Source of the DNA: Escherichia coli
GTDB lineage: Bacteria; Pseudomonadota; Gammaproteobacteria; Enterobacterales; Enterobacteriaceae
Direction: 5' to 3' (one strand)
Assembly (NCBI RefSeq): GCF_003334255.1
Contig: NZ_QOWU01000015.1
Length of the DNA stretch: 64,000 nucleotides
Shown here: positions 43,823-46,841 of the stretch, one piece after another
Position numbering within the stretch: the first letter of the stretch is position 1
Layout of the letters: each line of letters opens with the position of its first letter
The notes under the pieces: model-generated
Database searches by the model: none
What the model saw: only the letters and a program-made list of their open reading frames with translations
Told to the model about the DNA's origin: nothing
Translations under genes and position numbers: made by a program

Positions 43823-45106
43823 ATGACAGAAGCGATGAAGATTACCCTCTCTACCCAACCTGCCGACGCGCGCTGGGGAGAAAAAGCAACTTACAGCATT
43901 AATAATGACGGCATTACCCTGCATTTGAACGGGGCAGACGATCTGGGGCTGATCCAGCGTGCGGCGCGCAAGATTGACGGTCTGGGCATCAAGCATGTTC
44001 AGTTAAGCGGTGAAGGCTGGGATGCGGATCGCTGCTGGGCATTCTGGCAAGGTTACAAAGCCCCGAAAGGCACGCGTAAAGTGGTGTGGCCGGATCTGGA
44101 CGATGCCCAGCGCCAGGAACTGGATAACCGCCTGATGATCATCGACTGGGTGCGTGACACCATCAACGCACCGGCAGAAGAATTGGGACCATCGCAACTG
44201 GCACAGCGTGCTGTTGATCTGATCAGCAACGTCGCGGGCGATCGTGTGACTTATCGGATCACCAAAGGCGAAGATCTGCGTGAGCAAGGTTATATGGGGC
44301 TGCACACAGTCGGACGCGGTTCAGAACGTTCTCCGGTATTGCTGGCGCTGGATTACAACCCAACTGGCGATAAAGAAGCGCCAGTGTACGCGTGCCTGGT
44401 AGGTAAAGGTATCACTTTTGACTCCGGCGGCTACAGCATCAAACAGACTGCGTTTATGGACTCGATGAAGTCGGACATGGGCGGCGCGGCAACGGTTACC
44501 GGGGCGCTGGCATTTGCCATTACGCGCGGACTGAACAAGCGCGTGAAGCTGTTCCTCTGCTGTGCGGATAACCTGATTAGCGGCAATGCGTTCAAGCTGG
44601 GCGATATCATCACCTATCGCAACGGTAAAAAAGTTGAAGTGATGAACACTGATGCCGAAGGGCGTCTGGTGCTTGCCGATGGTCTGATTGATGCCAGTGC
44701 GCAGAAACCGGAAATGATCATTGATGCGGCGACCCTCACCGGGGCGGCGAAAACTGCGCTGGGTAATGATTATCACGCGCTGTTCAGTTTTGACGATGCG
44801 CTGGCCGGTCGCTTGCTGGCGAGTGCCGCGCAGGAGAACGAACCGTTCTGGCGTCTGCCGCTGGCGGAGTTCCACCGCAGCCAGCTGCCGTCTAACTTTG
44901 CCGAACTGAACAATACCGGAAGCGCGGCGTATCCGGCAGGCGCGAGCACGGCGGCGGGCTTCCTGTCGCACTTTGTTGAGAACTATCAGCAAGGCTGGCT
45001 GCATATCGACTGCTCGGCGACTTACCGTAAAGCGCCGGTTGAACAGTGGTCTGCGGGCGCTACGGGACTTGGTGTGCGCACGATAGCTAATCTGTTAACG
45101 GCGTAA
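43823..45106 (+). CDS. pepB: Peptidase B (M17 aminopeptidase, 427 aa)
   Basis: [18 protein letters not shown]...; NTDAEGRL M17 motif. Confidence 0.92.
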
Positions 45107-45114
45107 ACTAATAT

Positions 45115-45211
<97 letters not shown>

Positions 45212-45247: not shown

Positions 45248-46024
45248 ATGTCCGAAACAAAAAACGAACTTGAAGACCTGCTGGAAAAAGCAGCAACTGA
45301 ACCGGCGCACCGCCCGGCCTTTTTCCGTACTCTACTGGAATCCACCGTCTGGGTGCCTGGTACGGCGGCGCAGGGCGAGGCTGTGGTTGAAGATAGCGCG
45401 CTTGATTTACAGCACTGGGAAAAAGAAGACGGCACCAGCGTCATTCCTTTTTTCACCTCGTTAGAAGCACTTCAACAGGCGGTTGAAGACGAACAGGCAT
45501 TTGTCGTAATGCCCGTTCGCACGCTGTTTGAGATGACACTTGGCGAAACGCTCTTCCTTAATGCCAAACTGCCAACCGGTAAAGAATTTATGTCGCGTGA
45601 AATCAGTTTGTTGATTGGTGAAGAGGGAAATCCGCTGAGCAGCCAGGAAATCCTGGAAGGCGGTGAATCGCTGATATTATCGGAAGTCGCAGAGCCGCCA
45701 GCACAAATGATTGATTCACTCACCACCTTATTTAAAACCATTAAGCCGGTGAAGCGTGCTTTTATTTGTTCAATTAAAGAGAACGAAGAGGCACAGCCTA
45801 ATTTACTTATTGGCATTGAAGCCGATGGTGATATCGAAGAAATTATTCAGGCGACGGGAAGTGTAGCGACCGATACATTACCTGGCGATGAACCAATCGA
45901 TATTTGTCAGGTGAAAAAAGGGGAAAAAGGAATTAGCCACTTTATTACCGAACATATTGCGCCATTCTATGAACGTCGCTGGGGTGGTTTTTTGCGTGAC
46001 TTTAAACAGAATCGGATAATCTAA
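45248..46024 (+). CDS. sseB: SseB, enhancer of serine sensitivity (start alternatives: GTG 45239 or ATG 45248)
   Basis: MSETKNELEDLLEKAATEPAHRPAFF...; synteny with sseA. Confidence 0.85.
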   Translation: MSETKNELEDLLEKAATEPAHRPAFFRTLLESTVWVPGTAAQGEAVVEDSALDLQHWEKEDGTSVIPFFTSLEALQQAVEDEQAFVVMPVRTLFEMTLGETLFLNAKLPTGKEFMSREISLLIGEEGNPLSSQEILEGGESLILSEVAEPPAQMIDSLTTLFKTIKPVKRAFICSIKENEEAQPNLLIGIEADGDIEEIIQATGSVATDTLPGDEPIDICQVKKGEKGISHFITEHIAPFYERRWGGFLRDFKQNRII

Positions 46025-46028
46025 AATA

Positions 46029-46047
46029 TGCCGCCCAAAGGGCGGCA
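46029..46047. terminator. Short GC hairpin between the sseB stop and the small ORF stop; possible bidirectional terminator
   Basis: tgccgccc-aaa-gggcggca; U-rich sequence follows on the minus strand. Confidence 0.4.
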
Positions 46048-46054
46048 TTCGGGC

Positions 46055-46180
46055 TTACTTGCTGCTCTGAAGGTTGTTAACCACCAGTAAATTGTCGCCG
46101 GAGAGACTCCGGTTATTATTTACCTCGGTTAACAGCGCACCAGAAACAATAAGTACGATACAAAAGCACCGTATCTTCAT
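46055..46180 (-). CDS. Candidate 41-aa small hydrophobic protein (type I toxin-like; possibly the ryfA/timP class)
   Basis: ATG...TAA ORF translating MKIRCFCIVLIVSGALLTEVNNNRSLSGDNLLVVNNLQSSK; hydrophobic N-terminal 17 residues; not in the supplied ORF track (below its size cut-off). Confidence 0.4.
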   Translation of the reverse strand: MKIRCFCIVLIVSGALLTEVNNNRSLSGDNLLVVNNLQSSK

Positions 46181-46310
46181 TGTGCGGTCCATGCGAAGAC
46201 CGCATCACGACAGCACCACTGGCGATATTGCCGCGATAGCAAGCGCTGTGAAACACCTGCATTTACGGCCACGGAACATCCTTTCCTAAAGCCAGCGCCC
46301 GTTTGCGAGA

Positions 46311-46507
46311 CGGCGGAAAGGGCCGCAGTGGATAATACACTAACAGAACAATAATAACTCTCTTTTGCTTGACAAAAAGAGAGTTACTGGCGAGTATTGT
46401 CTCCGCTGAGACGCGCTTGCATTACTACGGTAATACAACCTGCTGGAAAGGCCGCGAACCGGACCAGCAACAAAAAACCGCCTGATTTTGGCGGTTTTTT
46501 GTTTTTT
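46311..46507 (+). repeat. Direct repeat copy 1 of an sRNA-like module
   Basis: Begins cggcggaaagggccg; contains perfect 9-bp-stem hairpin ctctctttt-gcttgaca-aaaagagag with TTGACA in the loop; ends ccgcc..ggcgg plus T-run. Confidence 0.7.
46404..46507 (+). ncRNA. Candidate ~100-nt sRNA 1 (antitoxin-like); predicted, not verified
   Basis: TTGACA (46369..46374), 17-bp spacer, gagtat (46392..46397); Rho-independent terminator at 46478..46507. Confidence 0.3.
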
Positions 46508-46632
46508 AAAGGAAAGTGAATTTACATGTTTAAGTAATATCTTTTACCGGTTAGAATTTTTAATTTTGAGCAGGATTTGTTTATATTTGTCTGAATTCAG
46601 ACTAATAAGCCAGGTTATTTTATTACCGAACA

Positions 46633-46826
46633 CGGCGGAAAGGGCCGGTGTCGATAATACGCTAAATAAACAATAATTACTCTCTTTTGCTTGACAAAAA
46701 GAGAGTTACTGGTGAGTATTGTTTTGCTGTGAAGCACCTGCGTTGCTCATGTAACACAAGTCAACCTGCTGGAAAGGCCGCGAACCAGACTAGCAATAAA
46801 AAACCGCCAAATTCGGCGGTTTTTTA
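46633..46826 (+). repeat. Direct repeat copy 2 of the same module
   Basis: Same start box, same 9-bp hairpin (46680..46705), same gctggaaaggccgcgaacc box, same terminator type; about 322-bp period. Confidence 0.7.
46726..46826 (+). ncRNA. Candidate ~100-nt sRNA 2 (sibling of sRNA 1); predicted, not verified
   Basis: TTGACA (46691..46696), 17-bp spacer, gagtat (46714..46719); terminator at 46804..46825, which also lies just downstream of sseA on the other strand. Confidence 0.3.
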
Positions 46827-46841
46827 TTGCCTGTAAAATAC

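Follow-up and report, generated by a model that had tools for sequence, protein, structure and literature searches.

The 41-codon hydrophobic reading frame between sseB and sseA of Escherichia coli as timP, toxin gene of a type I toxin-antitoxin locus

Does a short hydrophobic reading frame lying beside repeat modules in the chromosome of E. coli encode a membrane toxin, and if so, is it a new one? The question was raised by a reading of the window (the whole 64,000-nucleotide stretch of contig NZ_QOWU01000015.1 analysed here), which had only the letters and a list of their open reading frames to go by. That reading called attention to a 41-codon frame on the minus strand, running from ATG to TAA, and took it for an unannotated type I toxin. 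The frame and the peptide quoted for it are exact in the sequence (Table 1), the translation being MKIRCFCIVLIVSGALLTEVNNNRSLSGDNLLVVNNLQSSK. The frame is indeed missing from the track of open reading frames with which that reading was supplied, but in RefSeq it is annotated, as timP, at identical coordinates. The peptide also has the hydrophobic N-terminus and polar tail that had been described for it: mean Kyte-Doolittle values, which speak to hydropathy only, are 2.61 over residues 5-18 and -0.68 over the tail. A stretch of 14 residues as hydrophobic as that of TimP occurs in 2 of the 220 ATG-started ORFs of 30-60 amino acids in the window.

The ORF is very probably (we would put the probability at about 0.9) timP, which encodes the toxin of timPR, a type I toxin-antitoxin locus of enterobacteria, and the RNA called RyfA is the timP mRNA. 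This identification is made because of the match to the RefSeq coding sequence, membership in the protein family NF040796, the Rfam match to ryfA, synteny with sseA and sseB, and the conserved regulatory RNA elements considered below. Against the NCBIfam profile NF040796 (toxic_TimP), its sole NCBIfam match, the peptide scores 86.8 bits where the cut-off is 45, with residues 1-40 aligned to positions 1-40 of a profile of 40. The surrounding transcript, read from 46326 to 46023, matches the whole of the Rfam model RF00126 (ryfA, positions 1-296) with 314.9 bits and places the timP ATG at +147. The ncRNA gene ryfA of K-12 (b4440) maps onto the same interval, and in the genome of K-12 MG1655 timP (b4812) lies within ryfA, with timR (b4811) alongside.

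Over ryfA and timR, the window shows 100% identity with K-12, and a 1-kb query around the timP ORF finds 100% identity in several E. coli chromosomes. The locus sits between sseB and sseA, and the gene order pepB-sseB-timP-timR-sseA-yfhM is shared by the window, K-12, and other E. coli genomes. Between pepB and sseB there is also a REP-like palindrome (45101-45190) with weak matches to naRNA4 (CssrE) and ES036, an ordinary intergenic repeat of E. coli. All 5426 complete E. coli genomes (5426/5426) give a ryfA match, with coverage of at least 80% in 5404. Homologues that carry the name TimP come from Escherichia and Shigella, and a protein homologue search based on an index of 5-residue words reached only these two genera and mislabelled Klebsiella entries. 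timP is thus a gene already annotated and published, which the sequence-only reading rediscovered. Its identification of a small membrane toxin of type I is supported, the ORF being the orthologue of Salmonella TimP, published between 2020 and 2026 for Salmonella; a genuine type I toxin had been recognised from the sequence alone.

Table 1. Features of the timPR locus in the window, with RNA positions counted from the 5' end of the timP mRNA
Feature	Coordinates	Strand	Basis or partner
Intrinsic terminator hairpin of the timP mRNA	46028..46048	-	Terminator scan; 9 bp, 7 of them G-C, loop of 3 nt
timP mRNA (old name RyfA sRNA), 304 nt: 146-nt 5'UTR, ORF, terminator	46023..46326	-	Rfam; mapping from K-12
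timP coding sequence	46055..46180	-	Base-for-base equal to RefSeq CDS timP WP_001380605.1; K-12 b4812
Stem-loop SL4, sequestering GGA	46184..46203 (RNA +124..+143)	-	MFE fold
Site 4, the 5' arm of SL4	46198..46203 (RNA +124..+129)	-	Pairs with site 2
Pseudoknot site 3, GCCAGUG, in the loop of SL3	46217..46223 (RNA +104..+110)	-	Pairs with site 1
Predicted TimR-binding site in SL2, including variable region TGTTT	46244..46263 (RNA +64..+83)	-	20-bp helix with distal TimR
Site 2, GGCCGU	46265..46270 (RNA +57..+62)	-	Pairs with site 4, or with site 1 when inactive
Pseudoknot site 1, CGCUGGC, in upper SL1	46291..46297 (RNA +30..+36)	-	Pairs with site 3
Second TimR paralogue, non-cognate, proximal module	46405..46499	+	Direct repeats D1-D3
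Putative deletion scar left by a second timP copy (Rfam IS128)	46458..46666	-	RF00125, 260.3 bits; repeats D1, D4
timR, cognate antitoxin sRNA, distal module; terminator palindrome 46793..46830	46726..46825	+	K-12 timR b4811

The 5'UTR of the transcript is highly structured. The minimum free energy (MFE) of the timP mRNA is -129.4 kcal/mol (z = -5.4 relative to shuffled sequences), and its fold contains SL2 at +67..88, SL3 at +90..123, and SL4 at +124..143 (for RNA position p, the window coordinate is 46327-p). The sole element resembling a Shine-Dalgarno sequence is GGA, at 46190..46188, 7 nt 5' of the timP ATG. It had been noted earlier as a weak Shine-Dalgarno; it is not merely weak, however, but base-paired, since in the fold it lies within the 3' arm of SL4. 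In an alignment of 17 sequences, 93.8% of the positions concerned in SL1-SL4 are paired, versus 38-48% in slid controls. All six pairs of SL4 are invariant and formed in 17/17 sequences. The pseudoknot between +30..36 and +104..110 likewise has 7/7 pairs formed in 17/17 sequences, with compensatory changes at three of the pairs, and the pairing of site 2 with site 4 is 100% preserved in the 17 sequences. The inhibitory pairing of site 1 with site 2 appears in the full-length MFE structure, joining 34-37 with 57-60. Once an offset of 2 nt at the 5' end is allowed for, the mutants made in Salmonella (G33/C34, G102/C103, C57-G59, and G125/C138, M2/M2' included) align with these elements. To judge by its sequence, then, the window carries every published control element of timP.

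The transcript has a fitting end. The GC-rich hairpin with a U-rich tail that had been pointed out just past the stop codon is found as an intrinsic terminator, read from 46048 to 46028, with the tail AUAUUUUAGAUU, the hairpin being followed in the RNA by AUAUUUU. Mutations in the terminator stem cause loss of function in Salmonella timP (PMC13000454). At the other end, a scan for sigma-70 promoters found, on the ryfA strand of both modules, the match TTGTCA-16-TATTGT; since the -10 element stops 22 nt short of the annotated 5' end of ryfA, no promoter was assigned.

Conservation of the frame accompanied by synonymous change had been named beforehand as a test of the claim that the ORF is a gene. 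To find homologues, one genome per species was scanned with the SL4 pattern GCGGTCNNNGCANNGACCGCAC, which gave at least 120 loci, mostly chance matches in GC-rich genomes. Eighteen enterobacterial loci were retained, all confirmed as ryfA by Rfam, 14 with a complete copy; Salmonella is not among the loci listed by the scan. To the 14 complete copies were added the window's own and three divergent alleles of E. coli, for a conservation set of 18 transcripts, drawn from seven genera: Escherichia, Citrobacter, Superficieibacter, Yersinia, Pantoea, Erwinia, and Rahnella. An ATG-started ORF of 38-41 codons, beginning at +132..+149, is kept in all of them (18/18). The dN/dS ratio of timP is 0.08-0.09 within Yersinia, 0.14 within Rahnella, and 0.20 between Pantoea and Erwinia, and comparison of the window with Yersinia, Pantoea, Erwinia, and Rahnella gives 0.17-0.31, so that the test comes out in favor of the gene, with ratios of 0.08-0.31 overall. 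Within Escherichia the ratio is 0.6-1.5, a value based on only 0-3 synonymous changes and hence uninformative. At informative distances, the timP frame is under purifying selection. What is conserved across genera is the core CI(V/F)(L/I)(I/V)VSGA, while the tail is variable.

Some natural copies are damaged. In E. coli P276M (NZ_CP044293.1), ryfA matches over its first 168 nt only, timP is unannotated, and the gene appears disrupted. Several database entries labelled TimP (P0001, P0054, and P0068) are chimeric at the C-terminus or truncated; this suggests that the toxin gene is now and then inactivated in natural isolates.

Perhaps the E. coli transcript has no role but that of the regulatory RNA RyfA, and the ORF, untranslated or irrelevant, is kept open by the structure of the RNA. 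Several reports could be read in this way. In UPEC CFT073, ryfA alleles in which the ORF is destroyed still complement the phenotypes of a ryfA deletion; deletion of timR in APEC has minimal effects (PMC13188913); reporter fusions to RyfA1 of Shigella dysenteriae yielded no protein (PMC5333039); and RyfA reportedly binds ProQ and affects virulence phenotypes (PMC10664665). Both the UPEC and the APEC studies ascribe the phenotypes of ryfA to the RNA (for APEC, PMC13188913), and the toxicity of E. coli TimP is explicitly left open (PMC13188913). A dN/dS near 1 within Escherichia, calculated from very few changes, points in the same direction. Such a role for RNA does not, however, account for a frame whose start and stop are maintained in 18/18 sequences from seven genera, with dN/dS of 0.08-0.3, despite pS values as high as 0.7. 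Nor does it account for the conserved and covarying set of elements that control translation (SL4, the pseudoknot, the pairing of site 2 with site 4, and TimR), which would be purposeless in a non-coding RNA. The phenotypes seen at the level of RNA fit a dual-function RNA and are compatible with a toxin. A transcript that is regulatory RNA and nothing else is, in our estimation, improbable. The UPEC, APEC, and Shigella results would fit a tightly repressed toxin encoded on a dual-function RNA. Our search of the literature found no direct experiment on the E. coli TimP peptide, and for ribosome profiling or tagging of TimP in E. coli it found nothing.

If timP is translated, where does the peptide begin? 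Four codons 5' of the timP ATG, at 46192..46190, a second ATG lies in frame within the loop of SL4, and initiation there would give 45 amino acids (MDRTMKIRC...). The UPEC study assumed this start, describing an ORF at +135..+270 that encodes 45 aa, and some database entries open with MDRT (e.g., P0005). The upstream ATG overlaps the only GGA, however, and so would have no Shine-Dalgarno of its own. Furthermore, Rahnella, Erwinia, and Y. similis lack it, while the ATG at +147 is invariant, and in Salmonella the loop of SL4, as given by a primer sequence, reads GCAAGG rather than GCATGG. Since the upstream ATG is missing in these four, the 41-aa form is the conserved one. It is also the form adopted by RefSeq and NCBIfam, and in Salmonella it is the downstream ATG whose change to AAG abolishes TimP. 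A start at 46192 is accordingly a very slight prospect.

A different frame runs through the same region. A uORF of 31 codons (46177-46272, minus strand) begins with GTG at +55, preceded by AAGGA, and spans SL2-SL4; its stop codon, UGA, shares bases with the timP start codon (AUGA). O157, SCPM, E1V33, and Superficieibacter have ATG in place of the GTG, and UTI89/AR_0006 have lost the start. In one E. albertii entry (P0031), the uORF frame is fused to timP. Salmonella has a shorter timP uORF, which was shown to be dispensable.

The least tenable alternative is a chance ORF in an intergenic region of structured RNA. The window contains 261 ORFs of at least 41 aa that start with ATG, close to the ~239 of shuffled sequence, so that the length of the timP ORF alone is not beyond chance, and two further ORFs, of 31 and 48 codons, overlap timP in other frames. 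Those two, however, lose their start codon or change length outside Escherichia, whereas timP has its conservation, its purifying selection, its match to a family HMM, and an experimentally characterised orthologue (PMC7667032), and the conservation data already refute the idea. The ORF is taken as real because of its conservation and family membership, not because of its length.

How, then, might timP work? The gene identity, the purifying selection on the ORF, and the presence and covariation of the RNA elements were computed here; for the remainder one may turn to Salmonella, where three detailed papers already cover the control of timP (PMC7667032, PMC11228461, and PMC13000454). There, ryfA is the mRNA for TimP, a 38-aa toxin of the inner membrane (Andresen 2020, PMC7667032). 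Changing the timP ATG to AAG abolishes both protein and toxicity, TimP fractionates with the inner membrane, and its overexpression induces cpxP and lets propidium iodide into the cells (PMC7667032). TimR, a divergently transcribed sRNA, blocks translation by pairing with the 5'UTR, as established by compensatory mutants and in vitro translation; native TimP is visible only when timR is deleted, and then there is no growth defect (PMC7667032). The Shine-Dalgarno is locked in SL4, the mRNA is not processed, and a 7-bp pseudoknot between SL1 and SL3, disrupted by TimR, is essential for translation (Eleftheraki & Holmqvist 2024, PMC11228461). To this were added the activating pairing of site 2 with site 4 and the inhibitory one between sites 1 and 2 (Eleftheraki 2026, PMC13000454). 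Salmonella timP is toxic when expressed from the E. coli chromosome (PMC13000454).

If the E. coli locus behaves in the same way, the 41-aa peptide, with a hydrophobic N-terminus resembling a Sec signal, would insert into the inner membrane and, in excess, make it leaky. By default, the synthesis of TimP would be blocked after transcription, with GGA paired in SL4 and the 5'UTR held inactive by the pairing of site 1 with site 2. Activation would be a structural switch: formation of the SL1-SL3 pseudoknot (sites 1 and 3) together with the pairing of site 2 to the 5' arm of SL4 would expose the Shine-Dalgarno. TimR, divergent and about 100 nt in length, would pair with SL2 of the active fold, destabilise the pseudoknot, and stop initiation. 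The translation, membrane targeting, toxicity, and repression by TimR proposed here for E. coli are thus modelled on the experiments in Salmonella.

The antitoxin is to be sought within the repeat modules, mentioned only in passing by the sequence-only reading. These are two direct-repeat modules, 46310-46500 and 46632-46825, upstream of timP, and both hold the promoter and 5' end of ryfA and a divergent TimR-type gene with its terminator. Whole-RNA RNAduplex runs gave meaningless zippers and were replaced by comparison of the SL2 region with the 5' end of TimR; the duplex energies so obtained discriminate poorly, and the length of the uninterrupted helix was used instead. By this measure, the TimR gene of the distal module is the cognate one: its 5' end forms an uninterrupted helix of 20 bp, 3 of them G-U, with timP +64..+83. 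It is 100% identical to that of K-12 and agrees with Salmonella TimR, as reconstructed from primers, at 77/104 aligned positions. It is not adjacent to timP but lies about 400 nt away. The proximal TimR agrees with the same reconstruction at 75/100 positions, and its seed pairs at 17/17 positions with the timP allele of UTI89/AR_0006, as against 11 bp (3 G-U) with timP of the window. Of the 18 loci, 15 have a TimR-type complement that extends over at least 16 bp. The cognate complement in other genera is 63-99 nt away from the start of transcription, i.e., in the proximal position. The proximal TimR of the window appears, therefore, to be an orphan, a non-cognate antitoxin gene in the canonical adjacent place.

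PGAP annotates neither copy of TimR in ordinary RefSeq genomes of E. coli; timR is annotated only in K-12 MG1655. No TimR-specific Rfam family matches the copies. They do give sub-threshold Rfam matches (46747-46828 on the plus strand and 46469-46544 on the minus) to AgrB, OhsC, and OrzO-P, and TimR of Pantoea latae (L100, 1439-1519) reaches the AgrB gathering score, with 40.7 vs 40. Matches to AgrB, OhsC, and OrzO may reflect shared terminator architecture only.

The variable region of timP is TGTTT in the window, CGCGT in UTI89, and CACCC or CCCCC in O157-like strains. Such alleles of ryfA have been described, as has the dependence of the specificity of RyfB on that region (Fris 2017, PMC5333039). 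Of the 5426 genomes, 4546 have the U-type TimR 5' region, 2021 have K-type TimR, and 1971 have the K-type SL2 of timP; by these counts, the arrangement in K-12 is common.

How did the cognate antitoxin come to be the distant one? Strain EC476 (L006) carries two complete cognate timP/TimR pairs in tandem, with a duplicated sseB fragment of 87 nt between them. The window is collinear with this array except for a deletion of about 357 bp, and what would be the second timP is gone from +18 onwards. The region that Rfam calls IS128 combines the ryfA promoter and the first ~17 nt of ryfA with the last ~14 nt of the sseB 3' fragment that was duplicated, a spacer rich in A and T, and the rear part of the terminator of the proximal TimR, with a junction at 46632. 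Given the collinearity with EC476, IS128 would therefore be by origin the scar of a deletion and not an independent sRNA gene. The intact ryfA, moreover, is a mosaic (46300-46503, compared with UTI89, L005, and EC476): U-type in TimR and the promoter up to about +20 and K-type in SL2. Such a mosaic implies that tandem copies of timPR exchanged sequence by recombination or gene conversion. Perhaps the K-12-type timPR is the rearranged remnant of a tandem array of two systems, with the distal, cognate TimR derived from the deleted copy and the proximal one left an orphan, a proposal that we advance tentatively and with more doubt than belief. This swapped or orphan architecture may be new; the arrangement was not found described in the papers on timPR that were consulted.

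If the remnant hypothesis is true and the orphan TimR is expressed, it could give immunity to incoming U-type alleles of timP or bring about partial cross-repression, and the looser, G-U-rich pairing of the cognate antitoxin could ease the derepression of K-12-type TimP. The pairing classes of timP and TimR, together with the orphan, would offer a possible natural system for studying how the specificity of an RNA antitoxin diversifies.

The closest known system is timP/TimR of Salmonella enterica serovar Typhimurium, an orthologous locus beside sseB and of the same ryfA family. The ORF has the same place once the offset of 2 nt at the 5' end is taken into account (+147 here, +145 in Salmonella), and the N-terminus conforms to MK(I/V)RCFC(I/V)VL(I/L)VSG. 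Also in common are the Shine-Dalgarno within SL4, the 7-bp pseudoknot, the pairings of site 2 with sites 4 and 1, and a divergent TimR that pairs with SL2. TimP of the window differs in being 41 rather than 38 aa in length and in its polar tail, which is without the LHA-DR motif. Relative to Salmonella TimP, whose sequence was partly reconstructed from published primers, the peptide has 12 of the first 22 residues in common, with a tail that in detail bears no relation. Also unlike Salmonella, the window has its cognate TimR about 400 nt away, joined to timP by a helix with 3 G-U pairs and with a non-cognate TimR in between, and it lacks a gene like STM2534.

The genes called RyfA1/RyfB1 and RyfA2/RyfB2 in Shigella dysenteriae and Escherichia are the same genes under older names, with RyfB corresponding to TimR (Fris 2017, PMC5333039). 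timP of the window carries the variable region of RyfA2, TGTTT, and the rule given for RyfB specificity agrees with the matrix of pairings obtained here. Both S. dysenteriae and EC476 have two full pairs in tandem; the window has one toxin gene, two genes of antitoxin type, and the putative deletion scar.

More distantly, timPR resembles shoB-ohsC, zorO-orzO, dinQ-agrB, and tisB-istR1, all of which combine a small hydrophobic toxin, encoded behind a long structured 5'UTR with a sequestered ribosome binding site, with a divergent antitoxin of about 100 nt and limited complementarity. TimP has no relation by protein family to the toxins of these systems. The names RyfB and RyfC of K-12 we take to be old names of shoB and ohsC, a different locus, and so not the RyfB of Shigella that is TimR. 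A growth defect attributed to RyfB (PMC4606813) was for this reason set aside as evidence on timPR. There is one difference of mechanism: the mRNAs of shoB, zorO, dinQ, and tisB require nucleolytic processing, whereas the timP mRNA relies on a purely structural switch (PMC11228461, PMC13000454).
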